DNA of 51,277 bases from a virus. Lineage: Duplodnaviria > Heunggongvirae > Uroviricota > Caudoviricetes. Positions 592 to 49,391 of the stretch are shown one piece after another. A model generated the notes under the pieces. It saw only the letters and a list, made by a program, of their open reading frames with translations, was not told the DNA's origin and ran no database searches. Position 1 is the stretch's first letter, and every line of letters begins with the position of its first letter. The translations under genes were made by a program, and so were the position numbers. The stretch is from IMG/VR virus record IMGVR_UViG_2851955134_000001; one strand, written 5' to 3'.

Positions 592-2325
592 TCACAGTAT
601 TCTCTGAAACAGGCCCCAAATCGTCCCACTGATATTATTCACCGCCATGTTAGTTGTGCATAACATCCATGTACCAAGCATAGGATTGCCAAATAAAAAG
701 CGGATATCTGTAAGTTTATCCGATGACGACGACACAATAACGGCCTGTCTGATACGATACCCGGGTATTTGACGGGTATTTGTTATCTCATGATTTCGTT
801 CTATGATCCCCAGAACATAAGACCCCACGGAATAAACACTTCCGACGCTCGCTGGCCGCCCCGCTTCTCCTCTTGGCCCCTGTGGACCTGCCGGACCGCG
901 TTCACCTGTATACCCTCTTGGCCCCTGTAGACCTGCCGGGCCGCGTGCTCCTGTATCCCCCTTTAGTCCCTGTGGACCTGCCGGGCCGCGTTCACCTGTT
1001 TCACCTTTTGGTCCCTGTGGACCTGCCGGGCCACGTTCACCTGTATCGCCCTTTGGTCCCTGTGGACCTGTCGGGCCACGTGCTCCTGTTTCACCTTTTG
1101 GTCCCTGTGGACCTGCCGGGCCGCGTGCTCCTGTATCCCCCTTTAGTCCCTGTGGACCTGCCGGGCCGCGTGCTCCTGTATCCCCCTTTAGTCCCTGTGG
1201 ACCTGCCGGACCGCGTTCACCTGTATCCCCCTTTAGTCCCTGTGGACCTGCCGGGCCACGTTCACCTGTATCGCCCTTTGGTCCCTGTGGACCTGCCGGG
1301 CCACGTTCACCTGTATCGCCCTTTGGTCCCTGTGGACCTGTCGGGCCACGTTCACCTGTTTCACCTTTTGGTCCCTGTGGACCTGCCGGGCCGCGTTCAC
1401 CTGTTTCACCTTTTGGTCCCTGTGGACCTCCCGGATCTCCTTTATCCCCCTTAGGGCCTTTTTCTCCTCGCTCACCCTTTTCTCCCTTCAGACCCTGAGG
1501 GCCTTCCGGACCACGTGCACCTGTTTCGCCCTTTGCTCCCTGTGGACCTGCCGGGCCGCGTTCACCTGTTTCACCTTTTGCTCCCTGTGGACCTTCCGGA
1601 CCACGTGCACCTGTTTCGCCTTTTGGTCCCTGTGGACCTGCCGGGCCGCGTTCACCTGTATCGCCCTTTGGTCCCTGTGGACCTGCCGGACCGCGTTCAC
1701 CTGTTTCACCTTTTGGTCCCTGTGGACCTGCCGGGCCGCGTTCACCTGTATCGCCCTTTGGTCCCTGTGGACCTGCCGGACCGCGTTCACCTGTTTCACC
1801 TTTTGGTCCCTGTGGACCTGCCGGGCCACGTGCTCCTGTTTCACCTTTTGGCCCCTGTGGCCCGGTAATGCCTCTTTCACCACGAGCGCCGGTATCCCCT
1901 TTCTCTCCTCGTGGTCCCCGGGCAGATGCTGCTCGCTTCCGGGCTTCCTCCGCCTCAGATGCCGCGGACTCTGCTCTGTGCAGTATGGACTGCACCACAG
2001 CCTCCAGCTCTGACAACGCCTTCGGATAATAAGCAGCATCTTCCATCTCCATCAGAAATTTATTCAGTGTTCCCGGTGAAGAATCCTCCCTGACCACGAT
2101 ATCTCCCACATACGAAGGACGGTAACCTTCTGTATTGAGTGTCACCCTGTATATTCCTGGCTCCACATCCATACTGTAACTCCCCGTCTCTTCCGGCATG
2201 CCATAAGCCACTGTCGTGGCGATGACTGTCTCGCTGGTTCTCTTCGCTTTCAGCTCAATAATGCATCCCGGTACCGGTTTTCCGGTTCCGTCCCTGAGCA
2301 CGCCTGAAATTTTTACAGCCGCCAT
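592..2325 (-). CDS. side tail fibre protein (Stf-like) with long collagen-like Gly-X-Y repeat region
   Basis: N-terminus [18 protein letters not shown] resembles recalled lambda Stf N-terminus; about 340 aa of GPxGPxGxxGxRG repeats; ATG at 2325. Confidence 0.8.
865..1870. repeat. tandem ~45-bp coding repeats (collagen-like GxY units) inside stf
   Basis: Visible periodic reiteration of cctgtggacctgccgggccgcgttcacctgt... units; all six frames stay open across the array. Confidence 0.85.
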
Positions 2326-2458: not shown

Positions 2459-3136
2459 ATGTCCATCATTTTTAATGGACACTATCGTATGAAACACCGG
2501 ACCTGGATCACTGAAGCTTTACGTCTTCACTTTGAAGAACATTTACCCCGGGTTGTGGCCGGGCGTCGCCTGGGTGTACCAAAATCAACAGTTTGCAGTA
2601 TGTTCGTGCGCTTTCGGAGAGCTGGCCTTTCGTGGCCTTTGCCCGCAGGCATGTCGGAGCAGGAACTTGATGCCTGCCTTTACGGACAATTTTCCACGGT
2701 ACCAGTCGTACGTCCTGAAAGCACCGTTATATCCGAAGCCCCCGTGGTAAAAAAACGTCCCCGGCGGCCCAACTTCCCTTATGAGTTTAAAATCGCCTTA
2801 GTGGAACAGTCACTGCAGCCCGGAGCCTGTGTGGCGCAGATCGCCCGGGAAAACGGAATCAACGATAACCTGCTCTTCAACTGGCGCCATCAATACCGGA
2901 AAGGTGGCCTGCTGCCTTCCGGAAAAAATATGCCGGCACTGCTTCCCGTGACGTTAACGCCGGAGCCGGATAATAAAATCCCGGCTCCGGCACAGGAACC
3001 AGAGCAGATAAATACACCGTCCGACAGTCTGTGTTGTGAGCTGGTTCTGCCGGCCGGAACTCTCAGGCTTAAAGGTAAACTGACGCCGGCGTTATTACAG
3101 ACACTTATCCGCGAAATAAAAGGGAGCAGCCACTGA
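2459..3136 (+). CDS. IS66-family accessory protein TnpA (start may be the internal ATG at 2489)
   Basis: First ORF of the IS; stop overlaps the tnpB start (ATGA at 3136). Confidence 0.65.
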   Translation: MSIIFNGHYRMKHRTWITEALRLHFEEHLPRVVAGRRLGVPKSTVCSMFVRFRRAGLSWPLPAGMSEQELDACLYGQFSTVPVVRPESTVISEAPVVKKRPRRPNFPYEFKIALVEQSLQPGACVAQIARENGINDNLLFNWRHQYRKGGLLPSGKNMPALLPVTLTPEPDNKIPAPAQEPEQINTPSDSLCCELVLPAGTLRLKGKLTPALLQTLIREIKGSSH

Positions 3137-3483
3137 TGATATCTCTCCCTGCAGGTTCGCGTATCTGGCTGGTTGCCGGTATCACCGATATGCGAAATGG
3201 CTTTAACGGCCTGGCCTCAAAAGTTCAGAACGTCCTGAAGGATGACCCGTTCTCCGGACACCTGTTCATCTTCCGCGGACGCCGGGGTGACCAGATAAAA
3301 GTGTTGTGGGCTGACAGTGACGGACTGTGCCTCTTCACCAAACGCCTGGAGCGGGGCCGCTTCGTCTGGCCGGTTACCCGTGACGGCAAGGTGCACCTTA
3401 CTCCGGCTCAGTTATCTATGCTTCTTGAAGGTATCAACTGGAAGCACCCGAAACGAACGGAACGCGCTGGCATTCGCATATAA
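3136..3483 (+). CDS. IS66-family TnpB (Orf2)
   Basis: 115 aa with sequence MISLPAGSRIWLVAGITDMRNGFNGL... characteristic of IS66 Orf2, as recalled. Confidence 0.85.
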   Translation: MISLPAGSRIWLVAGITDMRNGFNGLASKVQNVLKDDPFSGHLFIFRGRRGDQIKVLWADSDGLCLFTKRLERGRFVWPVTRDGKVHLTPAQLSMLLEGINWKHPKRTERAGIRI

Positions 3484-3502
3484 CCCGTTGTAAAGTGAGG
3501 AT

Positions 3503-5074
3503 ATGGACACCTCACTTGCTCATGAGAATGCCCGCCTGCGGGCACTGTTGCAGACGCAACAGGACACCATCCGCCAGATGGCGAAATACAACCGCCTGCT
3601 CTCACAGCGGGTGGCGGCTTATGCTTCCGAAATCAACCGGCTGAAGGCGCTGGTTGCGAAACTGCAACGTATGCAGTTCGGTAAAAGCTCAGAAAAACTT
3701 CGTGCAAAAACCGAACGGCAGATACAGGAAGCACAGGAGCGAATCAGCGCACTTCAGGAAGAAATGGCGGAAACGCTGGGTGAGCAATATGACCCGGTAC
3801 TGCCATCCGCCCTGCGCCAGTCTTCAGCCCGTAAACCGTTACCGGCCTCACTTCCCCGTGAAACCCGGGTTATCCGGCCGGAAGAGGAATGCTGTCCTGC
3901 CTGTGGTGGTGAACTCAGTTCTCTGGGATGTGATGTGTCAGAGCAACTGGAGCTTATCAGCAGCGCCTTTAAGGTTATCGAAACACAACGTCCGAAACTG
4001 GCCTGTTGCCGGTGCGACCATATCGTGCAGGCACCGGTGCCTTCAAAACCCATTGCACGCAGTTATGCCGGAGCGGGGCTCCTGGCCCATGTCGTCACCG
4101 GAAAATATGCAGACCATCTGCCGTTATACCGCCAGTCAGAGATATACCGCCGTCAGGGTGTGGAGCTGAGCCGTGCCACACTGGGGCGCTGGACTGGTGC
4201 CGTTGCTGAACTACTGGAGCCGCTGTATGACGTCCTGCGCCAGTATGTGCTGATGCCCGGTAAAGTCCATGCTGATGATATCCCCGTCCCGGTCCAGGAG
4301 CCGGGCAGCGGTAAAACCCGGACAGCCCGGCTGTGGGTCTACGTCCGTGATGACCGTAACGCCGGTTCACAGATGCCCCCGGCGGTCTGGTTCGCGTACA
4401 GTCCGGACCGGAAAGGTATCCATCCACAAAATCACCTGGCCGGTTACAGCGGTGTGCTTCAGGCCGATGCTTACGGTGGTTACCGGGCGTTATACGAATC
4501 CGGCAGAATAACGGAAGCCGCGTGTATGGCTCATGCCCGGAGAAAAATCCACGATGTGCATGCAAGAGCGCCCACCGACATCACCACGGAAGCCCTGCAG
4601 CGTATCGGTGAACTGTATGCCATCGAGGCAGAGGTCCGGGGCTGTTCAGCAGAACAGCGTCTGGCGGCAAGAAAAACCAGAGCCGCGCCACTGATGCAGT
4701 CACTGTATGACTGGATACAGCAACAGATGAAAACACTGTCGCGTCACTCAGATACGGCAAAAGCGTTCGCATACCTGCTGAAACAGTGGGATGCACTGAA
4801 CGTGTACTGCAGTAATGGCTGGGTGGAAATCGACAACAACATCGCAGAGAACGCCTTACGGGGAGTGGCCGTAGGCCGGAAAAACTGGCTCTTCGCGGGT
4901 TCCGACAGCGGTGGCGAACATGCGGCGGTGTTGTACTCGCTGATCGGCACATGCCGTCTGAACAATGTGGAGCCAGAAAAATGGCTGCGTTACGTTATTG
5001 AGCATATTCAGGACTGGCCGGCAAACCGGGTACGCGATCTGTTGCCCTGGAAAGTTGATCTGAGCTCTCAGTAA
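3503..5074 (+). CDS. IS66-family transposase (TnpC)
   Basis: 523 aa; N-terminal leucine-zipper-like region, CxxC zinc motif and C-terminal region typical of IS66 transposases. Confidence 0.9.
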
Positions 5075-5107: not shown

Positions 5108-5353
5108 TTACTTCACGCACGAAACTTTCGTAAACATATCTTCACTCACCCACTGACCATAAAATCTCGGAGCTGATACTTTATACACAGTGCCGCTTTT
5201 CGTTTCTATTTTCCCTGTAAGATCTACCGTATAAGCTCGCTGTAAAACCCCGGGACTCAGCACACCGGTGCACCGGACTCTCTCCGTAACGGAACTGTAC
5301 CCCGCGCAACCTGATACAAGAAACAGCAAAAAAGTGCAGACGATTATTTTCAT
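5108..5353 (-). CDS. small lipoprotein downstream of tail genes; possibly Cor-like superinfection exclusion protein
   Basis: Signal peptide with lipobox LVSGC; 81 aa; the position after the J/tail region matches where cor sits in phi80/HK022-type phages. Confidence 0.45.
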   Translation of the reverse strand: MKIIVCTFLLFLVSGCAGYSSVTERVRCTGVLSPGVLQRAYTVDLTGKIETKSGTVYKVSAPRFYGQWVSEDMFTKVSCVK

Positions 5354-5374
5354 TACATGCCCTCAACATAACTA

Positions 5375-6037
5375 TCAGTACGCATCATAAATTTCTGCAT
5401 TTATGTAATAACAGAGGTTATTAACAACACCTGAATTATCATTGGGCGCCGCTACGTTATCTTCAGCAAAAGTTGACTGACGCCATAACTGTGAGTTTCT
5501 GGCATTAAAACTGGCGGTATACCAGTAATAACTCTCCCCTTCCTGAACTGTCGTCCACTGGGTACACCCCGGCATTACGGCCACATCATGTCCCACACTG
5601 ATCGGTACATCCTTTTCCCATATTCGCGTCATTTTTACTTCCAGTGGCAGCATTTCCGTGTTCCAGACCACCCTGCCATGACTGTCGCACAACTGTATTC
5701 CCCATTGCGGCCATACATTCACCATGTTGGCAAAAACATAAACAACATATGTGCTGTCCTGTTCCATGCCCGGCTCCTGCCCTGTACCAGCGCTGAAAAT
5801 GTCATACTGCCAGGTACCGTTAAGCTGAACCATTTCACCATGGAAGGACTGATTACCGCTTATCTGTTTAATAAAAATCACGCAACGATAATTCGTCGGC
5901 ACCCCGGTGTCGATAAACTGCATCACCGCATCACGCGCACTCAGTGTGAAATGAAAACGGCGCACAAGGTTCAGTGGCGGCGCAACAGGTGATATCCATT
6001 CTCTCCCCCGCTCATCAGTTAATTTAAGTGCAAACAT
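5375..6037 (-). CDS. hypothetical phage protein in the tail tip region
   Basis: ATG at 6037 with AAGGGGGA RBS; 220 aa; no recognisable motif. Confidence 0.5.
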   Translation of the reverse strand: MFALKLTDERGREWISPVAPPLNLVRRFHFTLSARDAVMQFIDTGVPTNYRCVIFIKQISGNQSFHGEMVQLNGTWQYDIFSAGTGQEPGMEQDSTYVVYVFANMVNVWPQWGIQLCDSHGRVVWNTEMLPLEVKMTRIWEKDVPISVGHDVAVMPGCTQWTTVQEGESYYWYTASFNARNSQLWRQSTFAEDNVAAPNDNSGVVNNLCYYINAEIYDAY

Positions 6038-6297
6038 CAGATCCCCCTTATCATGACCAGCACGGGTCTTAGCCAGCTTGTGTTGGCATAGTGCACTGTC
6101 CAGCCGGATACACTGGCACTGGTATGACTTCCCTGACCGTTAATCAGAATGGCCGGTGAACAGACTTCCAGACGCCAGCCCTGCAAAGGAGTATAAGAAC
6201 GCTGCCCCGTCCCTTCAGTGATCACATCCAGCACCCCTGTTGGGTTTATTTCATGTGTCACAAGGCGCCCTTTGCGCCATACCCGGACTCCGAACAT
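6037..6297 (-). CDS. hypothetical small protein translationally coupled to J
   Basis: ATG overlaps the J stop (TAATG); GGGGAG RBS inside the J 3' end. Confidence 0.4.
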   Translation of the reverse strand: MFGVRVWRKGRLVTHEINPTGVLDVITEGTGQRSYTPLQGWRLEVCSPAILINGQGSHTSASVSGWTVHYANTSWLRPVLVMIRGI

Positions 6298-9200
6298 TAC
6301 AGTCTCCCCAGTCGTACTCTTAACACATTGTTATCGTCATATACGTCGATTCGCTCGCCATTGAAAAACAGGCGGCCTGCGCCGGGCCTTCCTGAGTTAA
6401 TTTCAAGGCTGCCGTTTCTTGATAAACGCCACCCCGGACTACCGGAATGAAAATTATCTGACCGGATATCTCCCGTCACTCTGGCAAAATCCACGGTCAG
6501 TTTTTTCATGAAAACATCATTCATGAACAGCTGATCACCCTGAGCCACAAACAAAGGTGTTGTATTGCCATTTTCCGGGTTAATCATCGCAATACGATCT
6601 GCCTGCATCAGGATCTGACTCTGAATTCCGTCAGACGTATTTTCGATTCCGGCACCAATACCTGCAATATAGAGACGTCCATCCCGTGTCTGCTGCAGCT
6701 TCACAGCCCACATGCTGTTCAGGTTCCGGCGCGTGTCCTCCTGAACTTTCTGTATCTGCTCAATGCTGGCATTCCAGGATCCCAGTTTTTTATCCGTGCT
6801 CTGTGTGATCTGACTTCCCTTATCATCAACATACTGTCTGATCTGCGCTATCTGTCGGCTGTTCTCCTCCGTGCTCCTGCTTACTGTCTGCCGGATTTCG
6901 CTGCCCATCCTGTCAACTTTTCTGTCAACTTCCGCAATGGCCATTGACTGTTCAGCGCTCTTTTTCGCCACAACAGTACTTATTTGCGCACTTTTATCAT
7001 CAACATACTGCCTGACCTGCGCTATCTGTCGGCTGTTCTCCTCCGTGCTCCTGCTTACTGTCTGCCGGATTTCACTGCTCACGCTGTCAACTTTCCTGTC
7101 GACTTTCGCAATGGCCAGCGACTGTTCACCGCTCTTTTTCGCCACAACAGTACTTATTTGCGCACTTTTATCATCAACATACTGCCTGACCTGCGCTATC
7201 TGTCGGCTGTTCTCCTCCGTGCTCCTGCTTACTGTCTGCCGGATTTCACTGCTCACGCTGTCAACTTTCCTGTCGACTTTCGCAATGGCCAGCGACTGTT
7301 CACCGCTCTTTTTCGCCACCAGTTCCGTTATGCTGTTTTCAGACGCCGTGATTTTTTTCGTCACCTCTGCGATATCACGCTCCGCACGCTGCCTCACATC
7401 TTTCTCCAACTGCGTCATTTCGCGGTTAATCGCATTCTCCAGCTGCGTCATTTCGCGGTTAATCGCATTCTCCAGTTGCTCAACTTCAGTGCGCCGTGCA
7501 GAGGCATCAATGCGTTCATTGATCTCCCGTCCCAGATGCGTTTTATTTATCGCCCCCCTGAAAAAATTAAGGTAACCGGCAGGATCATTACTCGCCCGAC
7601 CGACTGCCTCCACGAATGCCGATTTACCGACAGTGTTAACACTGCGGATATAAAAGTAATAATCATGGCCAGGCTTAATATTCTGGCCGGAGACAAGCCA
7701 CTGAGTTCCGGTACCAAGATAACGGGCTGTGGTTTCAACCTGCCTGATATCGGTAATCCGCTTTTCCGAAAACCAGAACTCAAACTGCACCGTCGGATCA
7801 TAAACGGCAAGATGCGGCGTGGCGGTTATCTGAAAATAGCCCGGCGTCAGCTCAATCCGCGACGGCGCTGCCGGTGCGGCAATCCGGAACGATACCGACG
7901 CCGGGTCTCCCTGCTGCCCCCGGGCATTTACTGCCCGGACTGTCAGCCTGTAGTTCCCCGGCGCCAGCTGCCTGAAGCGGTATGTGGTTTCCGTCGTCCG
8001 GGCCGTGCTGACCAGCCGCTCACTGCCGTCATCCGCTGCCACGGTCAGGCGAAGCATGAAACTCACGCCTTTCACCACCTTCGGCGTGTCCCAGCGGGCC
8101 AGTACCTGATACTCCCCGCTGTCTGCGGTGACTTCGACAGTCAGGTGCTGCACTGCTGGCGGCGTGACACCATTCACCGTGCCGCTCTGGTCACCGTCAA
8201 AGTGTGCCCCGTTATCCACGATGCCCTCTTTTTCCGGTACATGCTGCACGGCAGTGATGGCATACGTGCCGTCGTCGTTCTCACGGATACTCACGCAGCG
8301 GAACAGGCGCTGGCGCAGCGTCGGCAGCTTCAGCCCCCACACGCTGTACTCGGCAACGCCGTCAGGAACCCGGCTCACTTTTACCTTCACGCCGTCGGTG
8401 ACGGACTGAACCTCCACGCTGACCGGATTGCCACTTCCGTCAACCAGGCTTATCAGCGTGGTACCGGAGGATGGCAGCGTGATTTCACGGTCGAGCGTCA
8501 GCGTCCGGGTCTGGCTGTTCACCGCCAGCACACGACCACCGGTGCTGATACCGGCATAGTCATCATCACAGATTTCAATGACATCGCCCGGTACATGGCG
8601 AAGCCCTTCAGCACCCACGCTGAAATCCACGGTCTGCGTCTCCAGCAGTTCTGTTTTAATCAGCCACAGCCCGGCGCGGTGTGCCTGCCCCCGGCTGGTA
8701 CAGCCAAAGGCATCCATCTTCGTGACGTTACGACCGTAACGGGCAATGGCCTGCGTATCTTCAACAAGCTCTGTCGCCGTCTCCTGGCCGTTATCCGGGT
8801 CACTCCAGTTCACCTCAACGGCATTATGGCGGTCCTTCAGGGCGCTGAAGCTGTAGCGGAACGGCGCGCCATCATCCGGCATCACCACATTACTGCGGTT
8901 ATAGGTCCACACCTTATCCGACGGTCGGTCCTGCACGAACGTCAGCGTCTGCCCGTTCCATACCGGCATACAGCGCATCGCCGAGCAGAAATCACTGAGC
9001 ACATCCCACGCCTTACGCTGTGTGGTCAGCCAGGCATTACAGGTGATGCGCGGCTCCGTGCCGCCAAAGCCGTCCGGCACTGACTGGTCGCAGTACTGGC
9101 CGATGACATACAGCGCCCATTTATCCACATCCGCTGCGCCAACACGTTTCCCCATGCCGTAGCGCGGATGGGTCAGCATATCCCACAGACACCAGGCCGG

Positions 9201-10013
9201 GTTGTTGCTGTATGCCGGTTTAAACGTTCCGTCCCAGATACCGCTGTATTGCCGCGTCTGCGGGTTATAGTTCGACGGCACCTGCAGAATGCGCCCGCGC
9301 AGATGATAATTACGGCTCACCTGCTGGCTGCCGAACTGCTCCGAATCCACCTGCACACCGACCAGTGCCGTGTTCGGGTAGCACTGTTTCACATCGATAA
9401 TTTCGGTGTATGACGACCAGAGCGTTTTGTTCTGCAGCTGGTCTGTGGTGCTGTCCGGCGTCATCCTGCGCATCCGGATACTGAACGGGCGCGGCGGCAG
9501 GTTATCCACCACCACCGAAGCCAGATACTGCGAGGTGGTTTTTCCCTTAATGGTGATGTCTTTTTCCGTTAACCAGCGACCGTTACGCTGTATCTGAACC
9601 AGCAGGCGGACTTCCGACGGATTCCGGTCCCCCTTTGAGGTGGTTTCCACCAGTGCCTGCACACCGAAGGTCAGGCGCAGACGGTCGATGTTTGCCGATG
9701 TGATGGTCCGGGTAATCGGCGTGTCGTACTTCACTTCCGTACCCAGCACCGTCTCGGAGCCGGAGGATTCAAATCCCTCCGGCGGCGTCTGCTCCTGCTC
9801 ACCGGCCCGGAATACCACCGTGACGCCGGATATATTGGTATTCCCCTCACTGTCCAGCACCGGCGTACCGTTCAGCAGCACGCTTTTTAATCCATCCACC
9901 GGTCCTTGTATCGGCCCTTCGCTGATGACATCGATCACACTCAGCAACTGCGTGGACTTCAGGTTGTCCTTCGCTTCGCGCGGGGTATGCCCCTTACTGC
10001 TGCCTTTACCCAT
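6297..10013 (-). CDS. J: tail tip / host specificity protein J with divergent C-terminal region
   Basis: First ~1000 aa closely match recalled lambda gpJ ([24 protein letters not shown]...); C-terminal part contains a coiled-coil repeat insertion and a short divergent end. Confidence 0.9.
6795..7320. repeat. three tandem ~174/177-bp repeats inside J (58-aa coiled-coil units)
   Basis: gctatctgtcggctgttctcctccgtgctcctgcttactgtctgccggatttc recurs at 6847, 7021 and 7198; a shorter 30-bp duplication follows at 7421/7451. Confidence 0.85.
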
Positions 10014-34543: not shown

Positions 34544-35590
34544 TTACCCGAGCACGCCGGTTGCAAAGGCGTGATCAAGAAAACGAAAAATTAAATCAAT
34601 CTGGGAACCATGCTTTTCTTCAAATGCCAGCGGATCAGCATGAAGTTCATTGTGATGCTCCCGGCACAGCGGTAGCGTAAAAATATCGTGGGATTTTGTT
34701 CCCATTCCGCCCTGACCATGACCAATCAGGTGATGGGGATCGTCGGCTGGCTTACCACAACACGCACACGGCTGTGTCTTTACCCAGCGCGTATATTTCT
34801 CATTTACCCAACGGCGACGTTTAGGTCGCTTCATGAAAGATTCAGGAGACTCCGGATCAACGGCAATGCTGACCACCGTCTTTTCCTGTGGTGGGTTTTG
34901 CTGGTGGGCGTGAGGCAGCGGCGCAAGATTTTTTGTGCGCTGCTTCAGTATGCTGGTGGCGGTCTGCTCTCCCGGTACGATGTCGCTTTCACGGTATACA
35001 GAGCGGATTTTTTCCGCACGCAACCCCAGCGAACGACGTAATACCGCTTCCGGTAGCGCGTCCGCCACCTGATTGCGGACCGCCCACCAGGATAATTCAG
35101 CCAGAGATAATTCACGCTCCTGCGTACCGCTTATTGCGTGACCGATGACGTCAATCATCCATGCTGACAGGTTTTGATGAGCAAGTTGCTCGAGTGATTC
35201 GGATGTCTGGTCACGCAGCTGGTTGTCGCAGTGCCAGCACAACACCATCGCGCCGGTACCGTAACGATGTATGACGATTTCACTGTGATGATAGTCACCA
35301 TGAGGCCACTGGCAGGATTTGACATGACGCAACAGCCAGTCAGACAGTGCCCCAGCGCCGCCAACAGCACGAATCACCCGATCATCGCTGAAAAATGGCA
35401 GTAATGATTTATCCTCCGCCAGCGGCTGGCGAACGGCAGGGACGACTCCGGATGGCAGGCCGCACATACTTTTCGGTTCCGGCTCCACCAGCACTCGAGG
35501 ATTGTGAAATACCGGCATGGATTCACGACCGGGCTTAAGGACCACCAGCCCGAGTTCCGGTACCAGAACAGGTCGAAGTAATACCCGCAC
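34544..35590 (-). CDS. DUF968-like nin-region protein with C-terminal HNH-like motif
   Basis: GTG start with GGAGGT RBS; C-terminal CACCGKPADDPHHLIGHG...LCREHHNELH. Confidence 0.55.
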   Translation of the reverse strand: MRVLLRPVLVPELGLVVLKPGRESMPVFHNPRVLVEPEPKSMCGLPSGVVPAVRQPLAEDKSLLPFFSDDRVIRAVGGAGALSDWLLRHVKSCQWPHGDYHHSEIVIHRYGTGAMVLCWHCDNQLRDQTSESLEQLAHQNLSAWMIDVIGHAISGTQERELSLAELSWWAVRNQVADALPEAVLRRSLGLRAEKIRSVYRESDIVPGEQTATSILKQRTKNLAPLPHAHQQNPPQEKTVVSIAVDPESPESFMKRPKRRRWVNEKYTRWVKTQPCACCGKPADDPHHLIGHGQGGMGTKSHDIFTLPLCREHHNELHADPLAFEEKHGSQIDLIFRFLDHAFATGVLG

Positions 35591-35591
35591 G

Positions 35592-35864
35592 TTACCTCCA
35601 GATCCGTTGCTGGAATGTGCGAGACGGACGCGGTGGGCGTTCGGAGTAAGGAAGCCTGACGGAGATTATCCAGTGACGATAATCGAGGCTGAGGGCTTTC
35701 TTAATCTCGTATCCGTGTCTGCGGTAACACTGAATCAGCCATTCGGCCTGTTCTTCAGTGCATGGAGGGTGTTGGTACCAGTCGGTTTTAAATACGCGAG
35801 AACGCCGCCCATGCCTGCTGGCACGAACGGCATCAGAATTGTGATTTTTGGTATTGTGCGCCAT
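35592..35864 (-). CDS. hypothetical nin-region protein
   Basis: ATG at 35864 (the track ORF begins at an upstream TTG); 90 aa. Confidence 0.4.
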   Translation of the reverse strand: MAHNTKNHNSDAVRASRHGRRSRVFKTDWYQHPPCTEEQAEWLIQCYRRHGYEIKKALSLDYRHWIISVRLPYSERPPRPSRTFQQRIWR

Positions 35865-36056
35865 TTGTTTTCTCTGCTGGCGCAGCAGGTGCCAGTTGTT
35901 CAGGCTAGCGTGCAGATTGTAAACCAGAATTCCCGGAAAAAACAAAACTCGCTGAGGCTGGTATGTTAATCATCACAGTCATGTTTGATGGGGTTAGCTC
36001 ACATTGGGTGAGGGTTCACGGCGTTTTCACTAATAATTTACCCTCCCCGCTATACA

Positions 36057-36449
36057 CTACTGCCCAGTTCTAACGAAGTTTTTGAAGGAAACAACTGCCT
36101 GATAGAGGTTTGGTTGACAGCCAAACATATTATCGCAAAAAGGCTGGATGAAAATTCTTGAGGATCCATCTTCATTTGGCATTTTACTCACTTGATAAGC
36201 GAGGAGTGGACTATTTGGTGAGGGGTTATAAGTGGAGATTAGCGTGTCTGTCGCCGTTTGAATTTTCCATGCGGAATTATTAGCCAACCAGAATTGCGCG
36301 CGTTTCCAATAAAAGTCACATTGCTTTTCATCTTTACATGTTAGTGGCTTCATTGCTTCTGCTTTCAACGCAGGATCGACCTTTGCTGCACACCCTCCCA
36401 ACATTACTGTTGCAATCATTACACCTGCAACTAAAACAAGTTTCTTCAT
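36057..36449 (-). CDS. lipoprotein of unknown function (moron)
   Basis: Signal peptide with lipobox LGGC; ATG at 36449 with AGGGAG RBS. Confidence 0.6.
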   Translation of the reverse strand: MKKLVLVAGVMIATVMLGGCAAKVDPALKAEAMKPLTCKDEKQCDFYWKRAQFWLANNSAWKIQTATDTLISTYNPSPNSPLLAYQVSKMPNEDGSSRIFIQPFCDNMFGCQPNLYQAVVSFKNFVRTGQ

Positions 36450-36592
36450 CTCCCTGCCCCCATCAGTAAAAGTTCGGTTCTCTGATAACTAGAGTTAATC
36501 AACGGAAAAACGCCGAAGCGGGTTAAGTGTGGGTGCATTGAGGATGCCTGACACATCAGAGGTGGCGAGGGATTTCTCCCCCGCCTGGTCTC

Positions 36593-36748
36593 TTACTCCT
36601 CAGGTTCGTAAGCTGTGAAGACAGCGACCTCCGTCTGGCCGGTTCGGATTCGTACCTCGCAGAGGTCTTTCCTCGTTACCAGTGCCGTCACTATGACGGT
36701 TAAACAGATGACGATCAGGGCGATTAACATCGCCTTTTGCTGCTTCAT
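36593..36748 (-). CDS. hok: Hok/Gef-family type I toxin
   Basis: 51-aa MKQQKAMLIALIVICLTVIVTALVTRKDLCEVRIRTGQTEVAVFTAYEPEE recognised as Hok family. Confidence 0.85.
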   Translation of the reverse strand: MKQQKAMLIALIVICLTVIVTALVTRKDLCEVRIRTGQTEVAVFTAYEPEE

Positions 36749-36984
36749 AGCCTGCTTCTCCTTGCCTTTCGGCGCGTAAGAGGCTAACCTACGTTTGTGA
36801 AGCATAGATTGGGCCTCAGATTAATGTTAAGCGTCTTGCAGGACGCGTAATGTTAACTGGGGCTTTTATCTATCTGCCGTTGGTGTTCATGCCCGAGGCA
36901 GATAGCCTCAAGCACCCGCAGCAATTCTACTTAACTCACGTCACCTCGCCAATATAAAATCAATCAGAAAGGTGCCCCATAAAA

Positions 36985-37650
36985 TCACTCCTTCTCTTCT
37001 TTACCGTAGTGGAGTTGGCCAATTTTTATAAGAGGGCGTCCCTGAGATTTGCGGTGTAGATTGGTATCGCGCAGAGAATACACACAGCCACAATATTCCT
37101 GCTGATAGAATTTTTCGCGCTTGCTGATTTCAATCATACGGGACGAGCCGCCCTGCTTGCGCCAGTTATAATCCCAGTACACCATACCCGGATAATGCGC
37201 AACAGCTCGCCGCCCACACTCGTTAACCTGCTGCATATTTTTCCAGCGTGAAATGCCCAGTGAACTGCTGATCACACTGAAACCATTTTCAGCAGCGTAT
37301 AACGCTGTCCGCTCAAAACGCATGTCAAAACACATGGTACAACGGATCCCCCTCTCAGGCTCCCATTCCATTCCTTTGGCACGTTCAAACCAGTTGTCGG
37401 TGTCGTAATCAGCATCGATAAACGGCACGCCGTGTTGTTCAGCAAAGCGAATATTTTCATCCTTACGAATTAAATACTCTTTCTGAGGATGAATGTTCGG
37501 GTTGTAGAAAAAGATGGTGTAGTCGATTCCCGAGGCCTGAAGCGCCTCCATCACTTCACCGGAACATGGAGCACAGCAAGAGTGCAGTAGTAGTTTGTTT
37601 GCCCCGTTCGGGAGCTCCAATTTAGGCCGTTTGAAATCAGCAATAGTCAT
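36985..37650 (-). CDS. QueH-like (DUF208) putative epoxyqueuosine reductase
   Basis: [11 protein letters not shown] motif near the N-terminus plus downstream RCTMC and EYCGCVYS cysteine motifs, recalled as DUF208/QueH signatures. Confidence 0.6.
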
Positions 37651-42616: not shown

Positions 42617-43500
42617 TAGCTAACCAACGAAGCTAAGGTTGGTAATTAAGGAGTTCTCCACGGGTGAGGTGGAGTACGTGCGCCGGACACGGGTGAGCAT
42701 CCGGCACTGACAGTTTACTGAAAGGATATTTCCCTGAAAAGTCAGACCATAACGCGAAAGCGCACGGCGAGGTAGCTGGTTCATAGATAGCCTGTCGTTA
42801 AATTTTCGTCGACCGTGCGCTTCCGGTTGTGGCAACCCGCGAAATGGTGCGGCGGTAAGTATGGCGGGGTTATTTCTTCCCCGTTGAGGACACCGGGTTG
42901 TCAGGTTGACCATGCGCCTGAGTGACAACCCCGCTGCAACGCCATCTGTTATCAATTTTCTGGTGACGTTTGGCGGTATCAGTTTTACTCCGTGACTGCT
43001 CTGCCGCCCTTTTTAAAGTGAATTTTGTGATGTGGTGAATGCGGCTGATCGCACGTGGAACAGTTAAAACCAAAAACAGTGTTATGGGTGGATTCTCTGT
43101 ATCCGGCGTTAATTGTTAACTGGTTAACGTCACCTGGAGGCACCCTGGAGGCACCAGGCACCGCATCAACAAAGTTCACTTCGGTGATGAAAGGTAAGAG
43201 AAAATGTTGAATGTAGCTATTGAAAACCAGTACGGGTGGAATTATAGTGCACCTGCACCTCATAAACCGGGTGCCGGGCGTGGAAACCCGAAGTCAAACG
43301 TAGCGCACAACCGCGCTCAGGCGGTTTTTTTATGCGTGAAGCACAGCCACATTCAGATTATGGTGGGGCGTGCAGGGCAGCCGCAAGGCTGGCCGGGTTC
43401 TACGTTGACCGGTATTTCCACCCCTGTACGTCTCACCACCATTATGGTCGTGGAAAGCCTCGGTGGTGAGTTATCAATACTCAACGTGGAGGCTGCCATT
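42617..43500 (+). other. ~880-bp ORF-free, hairpin-rich segment inside the early-left operon (candidate structured RNA / regulatory leader)
   Basis: No plus-strand ORF of 60 aa or more; multiple stable stems, e.g. gggttgtca...tgacaaccc, gcgcacgg...ccgtgcgc, cgggg-ttatttctt-ccccg. Confidence 0.4.
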
Positions 43501-46953: not shown

Positions 46954-47157
46954 ATGAGCAGCTTATTTTTAACCGAAGATGAATTGCTAATATTAACGGG
47001 CTGCAAATATGCAAGCCACCAGCGAAAATGGTTAATGGAAAACGGGCTTCCGTTCTATACCAATCGTAGTGGCAAACCGATTGTCAGCCGGGATCTATTT
47101 ACCTGCAATAAAACTTTACCACCACGCGAGGTAGAGCCGAATTTTGGTGCGATCTGA
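46954..47157 (+). CDS. excisionase-like protein
   Basis: 67 aa; stop overlaps the int start (TGATG); immediately upstream of int. Confidence 0.55.
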   Translation: MSSLFLTEDELLILTGCKYASHQRKWLMENGLPFYTNRSGKPIVSRDLFTCNKTLPPREVEPNFGAI

Positions 47158-48182
47158 TGGGAAGACGAAGGAAAAATCCTGAACACGAAAAATTACCTCC
47201 AAATGTATACCCAAATAAATATAGTTATGTATGGAAACCAACATCCAGAGAATCTGTAACACTAACCGCCATCAAGGATGGTTTAGCTGCTTTATGGAAA
47301 AAGTATGAGGAAACTGTAAATAATCGCGATCGTGCAATGACATTCGGTCGCTTGTGGGAAAAATTCCTCGCCAGCGCCTGTTACAGTGACCTTAGTCCAA
47401 GAACACAAAAAGATTATCTGCAACATCAAAAAAAGTTGCTTGCCGTATTCGGTAAGGTACCAGCGGATTCCATAAAACCAGAACACATCCGTCGATACAT
47501 GGACAAAAGAGGGGAACAGAGTAAAACGCAAGCCAACCATGAAAAAAGCAGTATGTCCCGTGTTTACAGTTGGGGGTATGAGCGAGGGTACGTGAAGGCT
47601 AACCCATGTGCAGGTGTAAGTAAATTCAAGGCCAAAAACCGCGAACGATATGTAACCGACAAAGAATACCAGGCAGTATTAAGCGTGGCACCCCTTCCTG
47701 TTTTTATCGCAATGGAAATTGCCTATCTGTGTGCAGCGAGGGTTTCCGATGTGTTATCGCTGAAATGGGAGCAGATTGGAAACGACGGGATCTTTATCCA
47801 GCAAGGGAAAACAGGGAAAAAACAGATAAAAGCATGGAGTCCACGATTACAGGCAGCGGTCGAAAAAGCAAAACAGTTACCAAAATCCGCCTATGTGATC
47901 AGCAATCAATACGGCAACCGATATATGTACAAAGGCTTTAACGAAATGTGGGTAGAAGCAAGAAATCGCGCAGGCAAAGTTTCAGGTATTTTAACCGACT
48001 TCACCTTTCATGATCTGAAGGCGAAAGGAATTTCAGACTATGAAGGAAGCAGCCGGGATAAGCAACTTTTCTCTGGTCACAAAACCGAAGGGCAAGTGCT
48101 AATCTATGACCGGAAGGTTAAAGTTTCACCAACACTTGATGTCCCGTTACCTGAAAATATTCCAAGAAAATATTCCAAGTAA
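47157..48182 (+). CDS. tyrosine integrase (lambda Int-like)
   Basis: N-terminus MGRRRKNPEHEKLPPNVY like lambda Int MGRRRSHERRDLPPNLY; C-terminal ...FHDLKAKG... and LIYDRK Tyr region; adjacent to a tRNA. Confidence 0.85.
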   Translation: MGRRRKNPEHEKLPPNVYPNKYSYVWKPTSRESVTLTAIKDGLAALWKKYEETVNNRDRAMTFGRLWEKFLASACYSDLSPRTQKDYLQHQKKLLAVFGKVPADSIKPEHIRRYMDKRGEQSKTQANHEKSSMSRVYSWGYERGYVKANPCAGVSKFKAKNRERYVTDKEYQAVLSVAPLPVFIAMEIAYLCAARVSDVLSLKWEQIGNDGIFIQQGKTGKKQIKAWSPRLQAAVEKAKQLPKSAYVISNQYGNRYMYKGFNEMWVEARNRAGKVSGILTDFTFHDLKAKGISDYEGSSRDKQLFSGHKTEGQVLIYDRKVKVSPTLDVPLPENIPRKYSK

Positions 48183-48234: not shown

Positions 48235-48324
48235 TGGCGGAGAGAGGGGGATTTGAACCCCCGGTGGAGTTGCCCCCACTCCGGTTTTCGAGACCGGTCC
48301 GTTCAGCCGCTCCGGCATCTCTCC
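48235..48324 (-). tRNA. serU: tRNA-Ser (anticodon CGA)
   Basis: Reverse complement reads GGAGAGATGCCGGAGCGGCTGAACGGACCGGTCTCGAAAACCGG...GGTTCAAATCCCCCTCTCTCCGCCA with long variable arm and CGA anticodon; K-12 serU neighbours mtfA. Confidence 0.9.
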
Positions 48325-49315: not shown

Positions 49316-49391
49316 TCCTCTGTAGTTCAGTCGGTAGAACGGCGGACTGTTAATCCGTATGTCACTGGTTCGAGTCCAGTCAGAGGAGCCA
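49316..49391 (+). tRNA. asnT: tRNA-Asn (anticodon GTT)
   Basis: TCCTCTGTAGTTCAGTCGGTAGAACGGCGGACTGTTAATCCGT...GGTTCGAGTCCAGTCAGAGGAGCCA, 76 nt. Confidence 0.9.

Follow-up and report, generated by a model that had tools for sequence, protein, structure and literature searches.

What does the small toxin-like gene in positions 36057-36748 of IMG/VR virus record IMGVR_UViG_2851955134_000001 (Duplodnaviria; Heunggongvirae; Uroviricota; Caudoviricetes) do there, and does the lipoprotein gene beside it belong to the same system? The record comprises 51,277 nucleotides (nt), the whole of which we refer to as the window, and its DNA is that of a lambdoid prophage of Escherichia coli. Our answer to the first question is that the locus represents, with a probability of roughly 85%, a complete hok/mok/sok type I toxin–antitoxin (TA) module, of the same lineage as hokD and hokW in lambdoid prophages of E. 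coli. All canonical RNA elements of such a module are present as judged from the sequence. This reading is built on sequence, homology, and predicted structures and pairings, from which we infer expression, toxicity, and trigger. The hok/sok locus as such is already known, and only the lipoprotein is uncharacterized. Unless stated otherwise, the genes and RNA elements described between 35592 and 37650 lie on the minus strand.

The predicted hok mRNA and its antisense RNA

The toxin gene hok (36593-36748) encodes 51 amino acids (MKQQKAMLIALIVICLTVIVTALVTRKDLCEVRIRTGQTEVAVFTAYEPEE). Its product matched the Pfam profile HOK_GEF over profile positions 1-42 of 42 (E 3e-23; 81.6 bits, with a cut-off of 22) as well as PHROG 251, "MokW-like host killing" (E 7.7e-33). 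It was identical at all 51 positions to HokD (RelF) of E. coli K-12, with identities of 47/51 to HokW, 41/51 to HokC, and 23/52 to Hok of plasmid R1. A preliminary description of the window, made from the sequence alone, had proposed a 51-residue Hok/Gef toxin with an in-frame upstream extension, and both proposals were borne out. The extension corresponds to mok (36593-36805; 70 amino acids), which in the list of open reading frames (ORFs) begins at the ATG at 36805 and forms an in-frame N-terminal extension of hok, as do the annotated mokW and mokC. Mok was identical to MokW in 62 of 70 residues and to MokC in 49 of 70. The mok ribosome-binding site (RBS), GAGG (36817-36814), is located 8 nt 5' of the AUG (36805-36803), and neither the hok nor the mok ORF is interrupted.

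Between 35950 and 37000, the window matches the chromosome of strain TUM1886 at 99.8% identity, and the RefSeq name of hok in that locus is hokD. The RefSeq/PGAP annotation of the locus contains neither mok nor Sok. In codon 47 of hok, the tyrosine triplet UAC (Tyr47; 36608-36610) is followed by a G (GCUUACGAA), and the same sequence is found in K-12 hokD. UAC-G is the context of A-to-I editing by TadA (Tyr to Cys), which has been mentioned for hokB, hokC, hokD, and hokE (bioRxiv 10.1101/2025.08.07.668861).

Upstream of mok, a generic promoter scan (threshold, 9) identified a hok/mok promoter at 36924-36952 that agrees with the consensus at 9/12 positions, with the -35 hexamer TTGGCG (36952-36947) and the -10 hexamer TAGAAT (36929-36924) separated by a 17-nt spacer. 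It aligns with the hokW promoter region and with the TATAAT of hokC, just 5' of the conserved mRNA start GGGTGCTTGAGG. The predicted full-length hok mRNA of about 412 nt (36506-36917) would extend from GGGUGCUUGAGG to the U-run that follows a short UUCG hairpin. For its 5' end, predicted at about 36917, we relied on where the Rfam model starts and on the alignment with hokW, hokC, and R1-type hok, and its 3' end was placed at the terminator-like sequence CCCGCUUCGGCG-UUUUU. The 423 nt from 36917 to 36495, which contain this mRNA, folded with a free energy of -164.4 kcal/mol (z = -6.0).

Two elements at opposite ends of the predicted mRNA are expected to close it. The tac element (GGGUGCUUGAGG, 36906-36917) forms the 5' end and pairs with 36543-36531, i.e., with the fold-back inhibition (fbi) element CCUCAAUGCACCC (36531-36543), which is thus complementary to the first 12 nt of the mRNA. 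This pairing was present in the minimum-free-energy (MFE) fold of 36917-36495, and the isolated duplex reached -21.5 kcal/mol in silico. In R1-type hok, GGCGCUU pairs with AAGCGCC, so that the pairing is kept through changes on both sides. Our fbi differs from that of phage 933W, K-12, and phage 689R5 at one base (U for C), and this base is the one bulged out of the duplex.

Immediately 3' of tac, we found a 5' hairpin (36870-36905) with the stem 36905-36897/36878-36870. The two arms of this stem, CTATCTGCC (36870-36878) and GGCAGATAG (36897-36905), make up an exact 9-bp inverted repeat. A perfect 9-bp inverted repeat with a loop of 3 to 40 nt arose in 65 of 5000 shuffles of 36750-36920, which makes a chance origin improbable. 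Both the consensus structure of the Rfam family and the MFE fold show the stem as paired, and it is kept in R1-type hok by a two-sided change (CTTTCTGCC/GGCAGAAAG; A-U to U-A) and in hokC by G-U pairs. The preliminary description had noted this repeat and had expected the Sok antisense RNA and the fold-back elements of the mRNA within 36750-36920. As expected, Sok and the leader elements including tac lie in this interval; however, the fold-back partner fbi is located 3' of the hok stop codon, and the repeat, although real, is part of the hok mRNA as its 5' hairpin and belongs neither to Sok, which ends at 36867, nor to fbi.

In the Rfam scan that had been suggested for this locus, the family RF01794, named "sok," aligned over its full length (positions 1-157 of 157) to 36743-36917 on the minus strand, with 111.2 bits (E 1.6e-24) and thus above the gathering score of 59. 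Since the match is on the strand of hok and its last model positions fall at the hok start codon, it describes the leader of the hok mRNA and not the antisense RNA. Annotation pipelines that copy the strand of RF01794 would put Sok on the wrong strand.

The antisense RNA itself was delimited by alignment to hokW, hokC, and R1-type hok, a comparison that the preliminary description had also recommended. The predicted Sok RNA of 71 nt (36797-36867, plus strand) maps onto annotated sokW of phage 933W with 66/71 identical nucleotides, and in the four-way alignment K-12 sokC has its 5' end at 36797 as well. Both sokW and sokC are annotated on the strand opposite their hok genes. The start at 36797 lies 6 nt after the -10 hexamer TAACCT (36785-36790) of the Sok promoter (36762-36790, plus strand), whose -35 hexamer is TTGCCT (36762-36767) and whose spacer is 17 nt. 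The sequence of this promoter equals that of 933W, and the corresponding position of R1-type hok reads TTGCGC-17-TATCCT. Primer YO-421 replaces exactly the -10 hexamer of sokW, TAACCT(A), and the resulting mutant is without antitoxin activity (Takada et al. 2021, PMC8621323).

The predicted Sok fold comprises a single-stranded 5' tail of 14 nt and a long hairpin followed by CUUUU. Its energy was -29.2 kcal/mol (z = -5.2), and none of 200 shuffles was equally stable. Sok is complementary to both the GAGG and the AUG of mok. A target hairpin is expected to offer a YUNR loop to the 5' end of Sok. In the MFE fold, CUUCACAAA (36802-36794), which contains UUCA, is placed in a hairpin loop complementary to nt 1-6 of Sok, but this fold is that of the full-length mRNA and not of the refolded active form. 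The fold of the 3'-truncated mRNA gave a diffuse ensemble (MFE frequency, 0.0003; centroid unlike the MFE structure), and we draw no claim on a target hairpin from it. Overall, the features whose absence the preliminary description had named as evidence against a hok/sok locus were found, namely, a Sok promoter with its TAACCT, a predicted Sok terminator hairpin, and the tac/fbi pairing in the MFE fold of the mRNA.

The end of the locus is marked by a weak terminator-like hairpin with five U residues (36506-36522). Its sequence, CCCGCUUCGGCG-UUUUU, is two G residues shorter than that of K-12 hokD, CCCGCUUCGGCGGG-UUUUU. The corresponding 33-nt stretch folded at -4.5 kcal/mol here, with the hairpin not formed, compared to -12.8 kcal/mol and a formed hairpin in K-12. 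The same truncation is present in phage vB_EcoS-689R5, another carrier of the lipoprotein gene. A generic terminator scan of 35900-37100 found no terminator; the Sok hairpin exceeds the stem and loop limits of that scan.

The neighboring lipoprotein gene and its prophage setting

Downstream of hok, the ORF 36057-36449 encodes a protein of 130 amino acids whose function is uncharacterized. It begins with MKKLVLVAGVMIATVMLGGC and contains the lipobox LGGC. The signal peptide reads MKKLVLVAGVMIATVM-LGG-C20, and the N terminus MKKLVLVAGVMIATVMLGG-C20-A, so that a lipobox MLGG-C20 is followed by an alanine at position +2. Cysteines 20, 38, 44, 105, and 111 are invariant among 15 close relatives; among 43 diverse relatives, Cys20, Cys38, Cys44, and Cys105 are invariant and Cys111 is found in at least 90%. 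A lipobox pattern was present in 125 of the 146 representative homologs listed. By these sequence criteria the protein is a genuine lipoprotein, and the pattern fits a lipid-anchored, disulfide-bonded protein of the periplasm or the outer membrane. The alanine at +2 suggests, by the +2 rule, sorting to the outer membrane by the Lol system.

A word-indexed search recovered 19 relatives of this protein, and an exhaustive profile search recovered 1277 clusters (defined at 50% identity) with E<=1e-3, of which 601 had E<=1e-10. A few members of the family carry a C-terminal PDZ domain. Those that are named are called "hypothetical protein" and come from Enterobacterales, Achromobacter, and Burkholderiales. 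The lipoprotein matched PHROG 16082, of unknown function (E 1.4e-81), and no family of Pfam, NCBIfam, or PADLOC matched it. When 43 family members were scanned against Pfam and NCBIfam (E<=1), DUF6491 gave weak matches in 8 of them (best, 0.0065), and matches to signal-peptide-type lipoprotein families were obtained as well; both were too weak for an assignment. The AlphaFold2 model is an alpha+beta structure with a pLDDT of 85.8 and a pTM of 0.74. Its best Foldseek hits, AMPK/KA1 domains, BamC, and Flpp3 (E ~0.01; TM <=0.53), reflect a generic alpha+beta likeness and were not used to assign a function.

The preliminary description had placed the toxin gene next to this lipoprotein gene and a QueH-like gene in an accessory-gene region of the prophage, and the ORF list, the lipobox, and Pfam agree with this placement. 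The slot directly 3' of the hok locus (35881-36506) is a variable accessory-gene site: it is filled by rem in the Qin prophage of K-12, by the YgiW/YdeI-like gene L0136 in 933W, and by the lipoprotein gene here, and homology to Qin resumes at 35881. The GC content of the lipoprotein gene is 41.7%, compared to 51.8% for the window. In E. coli, 254 of 5426 complete genomes carry the gene, always on the chromosome, and in 246 of these 254 it occurs together with hok. Since the E. coli copies are 95-96% identical, this adjacency reflects one prophage lineage and not repeated selection. Only 2 of 50,697 phage records contain the gene.

Homologs from other bacteria occupy other places. In a Pantoea ananatis prophage the homolog lies between tail genes I and J; the copy of a metagenomic prophage is flanked by tail genes M and L, and that of Phytobacter is next to a tail-gene remnant. 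In two Yersinia enterocolitica prophages (positions 5314-6402 of these loci) it directly follows a ParD/ParE pair, and in Achromobacter it stands alone in the chromosome. In one of the Yersinia prophages, SieB is found about 1.1 kb from the homolog. The Yersinia copies represent a second case of this gene beside a TA module, although the TA type is different. The regions upstream of these copies are AT-rich, and the terminators after them are strong. A tblastn search with Hok against 11 loci of lipoprotein homologs gave no match, with no hok within 6 kb, and we rejected a conserved hok–lipoprotein linkage on this result. A pattern search for loci of the family in genome contigs gave 17 matches, 0 of which were confirmed. 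Because the homologs are found in other prophage slots and none near hok, we conclude that the lipoprotein gene is most probably an independent moron that stands outside the TA system and, as far as can be judged from context, has a function unrelated to that of hok.

As to what the lipoprotein does, our best guess is a factor for lysogenic conversion or exclusion that works in the cell envelope. By analogy, Cor (phi80/N15/HK022), Llp (T5), and Bor (lambda) are likewise small secreted lipoproteins from accessory cassettes of temperate phages. Some of the homologs have the tail-tip gene J directly next to them or are flanked by M and L, and receptor-masking lipoprotein genes tend to occur in such places. 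A relationship to Cor or Llp in sequence or fold was not detected: the match to PHROG 1119 (Cor) had an E value of 0.0091, covered residues 1-44, i.e., the signal peptide only, and included 0 passing stretches. Unlike Cor, Llp, and Bor, the family also occurs outside prophages and in fusions to PDZ domains. The idea that the lipoprotein would shield the receptor used by its own phage found no support; compared to the Pantoea carrier, the C-terminal part of J is about 21% identical and the N-terminal 740 residues are 33% identical. A bolder proposal would make the protein the prophage representative of a large unnamed periplasm-facing family with two conserved pairs of cysteines that temperate phages of Enterobacterales have repeatedly captured (in nin, tail-tip, and ParDE/SieB slots), and a new envelope-level exclusion or conversion factor; we regard this as doubtful. 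If this locus holds anything new, it is the lipoprotein, a member of a widespread family that has a confidently predicted fold and moves between prophage slots.

The hok module and the lipoprotein gene are part of the nin region, and their direction of transcription is that of the early-right operon. According to the RefSeq annotation of the TUM1886 locus, the minus-strand order is a regulator, YdaT, an O-like protein, P, DUF1627, DUF977, QueH, and hok, followed by two hypothetical proteins, DUF968 (YdfU), RusA, Q, a methyltransferase, holin, lysozyme, and Rz. On one flank of the hok region are thus the replication genes and QueH, and on the other YdfU, RusA, and Q. The QueH (epoxyqueuosine reductase) gene (36985-37650; 221 amino acids; Pfam QueH, E 9.6e-66, and RefSeq annotation of the TUM1886 locus) lies directly upstream of the hok promoter and has a GC content of 48%. 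It is a neighbor outside the TA module.

On the far side of the lipoprotein gene, the ORF 35592-35945 matched PHROG 1212 (unknown function). RefSeq calls a 90-residue protein there, a homolog is labeled "toxin to Rem" in one phage record, and unannotated DNA between ydfU and rem in K-12 Qin is homologous to this ORF. Further away, three Rfam matches above the gathering score lie within 500 nt on the plus strand, in the early/immunity region of the prophage: DicF (76.7 bits; 42958-43009), isrK (67.1 bits; 43255-43331), and the C4 antisense RNA (78.6 bits; 43356-43443). An IS66-family element (2459-5074, plus strand), with an HTH_Tnp_1 ORF (2459-3136) and a DDE_Tnp_IS66 transposase (3503-5074), lies between a tail-fiber gene with collagen repeats (592-2325, minus strand) and the ORF 5375-6037 and J (6297-10013, minus strand). 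Finally, tRNA-Ser(CGA) (48235-48324, minus strand) and tRNA-Asn(GTT) (49316-49391, plus strand) are located near an ORF of 341 amino acids (47157-48182), and this site is probably the junction between the prophage and the chromosome.

Proposed control of Hok and role in the prophage

By homology to hok/sok of R1 and to hokW/sokW, the module would work as follows. The constitutive promoter at 36952-36924 would give rise to the stable hok mRNA, which the tac-fbi pairing would keep closed to both translation and antisense binding. Slow trimming from the 3' end would remove fbi, whereupon the leader would refold and expose the mok RBS and a target hairpin. As long as the abundant but unstable Sok is present, its 5' tail would begin pairing at the loop CUUCACAAA, just 3' of the mok AUG, and would then cover the mok RBS and start codon, so that translation of mok, and hence the coupled translation of hok, would be blocked and the duplex marked for RNase III. 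Once Sok declines, as reported for sokW after prophage induction, Hok would be made, insert into the inner membrane, and collapse the membrane potential.

For hokW/sokW, published experiments describe a toxic product, dependence on the Sok promoter, and partial dependence on RNase III and Hfq (PMC8621323). Treatment with mitomycin C led to the loss of sokW and the appearance of HokW in a way that depended on RecA, and deletion of hokW/sokW left about half of the phage yield, with no growth phenotype in the absence of induction (PMC8621323). Because the role published for hokW/sokW is one in lysis and release, we rate help in lysis as most likely here too. Most plausibly, the module would make lysis and phage release faster after induction, and it may also impose a penalty on loss of the element.

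The preliminary description had instead assigned prophage hok loci to prophage maintenance or abortive infection. The role published for the nearest characterized homolog, hokW/sokW, is neither of these but help in lysis and phage release after induction. That the locus is a phage-defense (abortive infection) or prophage-addiction module and not a lysis helper is nevertheless possible, if unlikely. Pecota and Wood reportedly found in 1996 that hok/sok of R1 excludes T4, which counts for this alternative, and the GenBank note on hokW reads "prophage maintenance." In the same direction, a roughly fourfold enrichment of hok genes in prophages has been reported, with defense discussed as a possible role, but the same survey found no enrichment of hok beside defense systems (bioRxiv 10.1101/2025.08.07.668861). 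PADLOC had no matching model for Hok, nor did it match the lipoprotein, QueH, or the rem-like ORF, and the only experimental study of the closest homolog arrived at lysis and phage release (PMC8621323). It is improbable that the locus is a silent relic, like several hok loci of K-12, which would be barely transcribed or never switched on and kept only by hitchhiking in the prophage. Chromosomal hok loci are often inactive (bioRxiv 10.1101/2025.08.07.668861), and K-12 hokD is without mok, sok, and tac. Here, in contrast, every regulatory element is intact, the leader is identical to that of functional hokW in 160 of 169 nt, the sole substitution in fbi falls on the bulged base, and the ORFs are uninterrupted. 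Sequences related to the locus are, moreover, found in 4727 of 5426 complete E. coli genomes.

A further alternative would join hok and the lipoprotein gene in one unit, transcribed by read-through from the hok promoter, in which Hok would be modulated or complemented by the lipoprotein, the latter being, for example, an accessory in the envelope or in lysis, or an immunity factor. The generic scan found no promoter-like or terminator-like site flanking the lipoprotein gene in this prophage, neither a promoter between hok and its start nor an obvious terminator after it. Taken together with the weakened hok terminator, shared with 689R5 and less stable than that of K-12 hokD, this makes cotranscription of the two genes possible, and the adjacency in 246 of the 254 E. 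coli genomes carrying the lipoprotein gene points the same way. However, this adjacency stems from a single prophage lineage. The homologs of Pantoea, Phytobacter, Yersinia, and the metagenomic prophage, which are 55-75% identical, sit in tail-gene or ParDE slots with terminators of their own and away from hok; related prophages fill the slot with unrelated genes (rem or the YgiW-like gene); and the contrast in GC content is sharp (41.7% versus 52.7%). We therefore consider a single hok–lipoprotein unit very unlikely and retain the reading of a complete TA module next to a probable independent moron.

Several points weigh against this reading or parts of it. The Sok promoter was missed by the generic promoter scan, as TTGCCT/TAACCT agrees with the consensus at 7/12 positions and the threshold was 9. 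Since the hok terminator is weak, the true 3' end of the hok mRNA may differ from the one proposed. In 933W, the locus lies at the end of the prophage and not in the nin region, so that the induction-linked behavior of hokW/sokW may not transfer. Intact chromosomal hokA, hokB, and hokC have been cited as giving no post-segregational killing (bioRxiv 10.1101/2025.08.07.668861), a result that speaks equally against an addiction module. As for the lipoprotein, Foldseek with the AlphaFold2 model gave no significant match in PDB and BFVD, and a profile search of PDB sequences gave nothing below E 0.4.

Comparison with known hok/sok loci

A megablast search against phage records matched 102 records, including 933W, VT2-Sakai, and many Stx phages. 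The closest characterized locus is hokW/mokW/sokW of the Stx2 phage 933W and the Sakai prophage Sp5 (AF125520), which is 94% identical at the DNA level over 36521-36937 (417 nt). The two loci have in common the -35 and -10 hexamers of Sok, the 12-nt tac, and the in-frame mok, and fbi differs only at its bulged base. Homology stops at 36521, just 3' of fbi. The toxins differ by four C-terminal substitutions (TAYEPEE here versus VDYESEK in HokW). The surroundings are also different: the locus is part of the nin region in this prophage, whereas in 933W it occupies the far right end of the genome, and its downstream neighbor here is the lipoprotein gene in place of the YgiW/YdeI-like gene L0136.

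In hokD (relF) of the cryptic prophage Qin of K-12, the coding sequence is identical at the nucleotide level, identity over 36506-36762 amounts to 97.7%, and the position in the prophage, upstream of ydfU and Q, is the same. However, homology to Qin is confined to 34544-35881 and 36506-36762, and within hokD it begins only at 36762, about 14 nt 5' of the hok AUG. In K-12, the leader has been replaced by relBE. This leaves K-12 hokD without tac, mok, and the Sok promoter and RNA, whereas the form described here is intact. K-12 hokD in turn has the stronger terminator, and it is followed by rem where this prophage has the lipoprotein gene.

The prototype of the family, hok/sok (parB) of R1, is much more distant, with 23/52 identical residues in Hok and 29/71 identical nucleotides in the aligned region of Sok. 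Nevertheless, the order of elements is the same, i.e., tac, 5' hairpin, Sok terminator region, mok RBS and AUG, Sok promoter, hok, and fbi, and conserved blocks are recognizable throughout (GCTTGAGGCT.TCTGCCTC, GGCAGA.AGA, AGCCCC, TAGCCTCTTAC, and CAAGGAGAAG). The R1 locus is plasmid-borne, and post-segregational killing has been demonstrated for R1 but not for prophage copies. The value of the locus described here is modest. It represents the complete form of K-12 hokD, whose leader was replaced by relBE, and is otherwise one more intact copy of a module that is common in E. coli and has been characterized as hokW/sokW.

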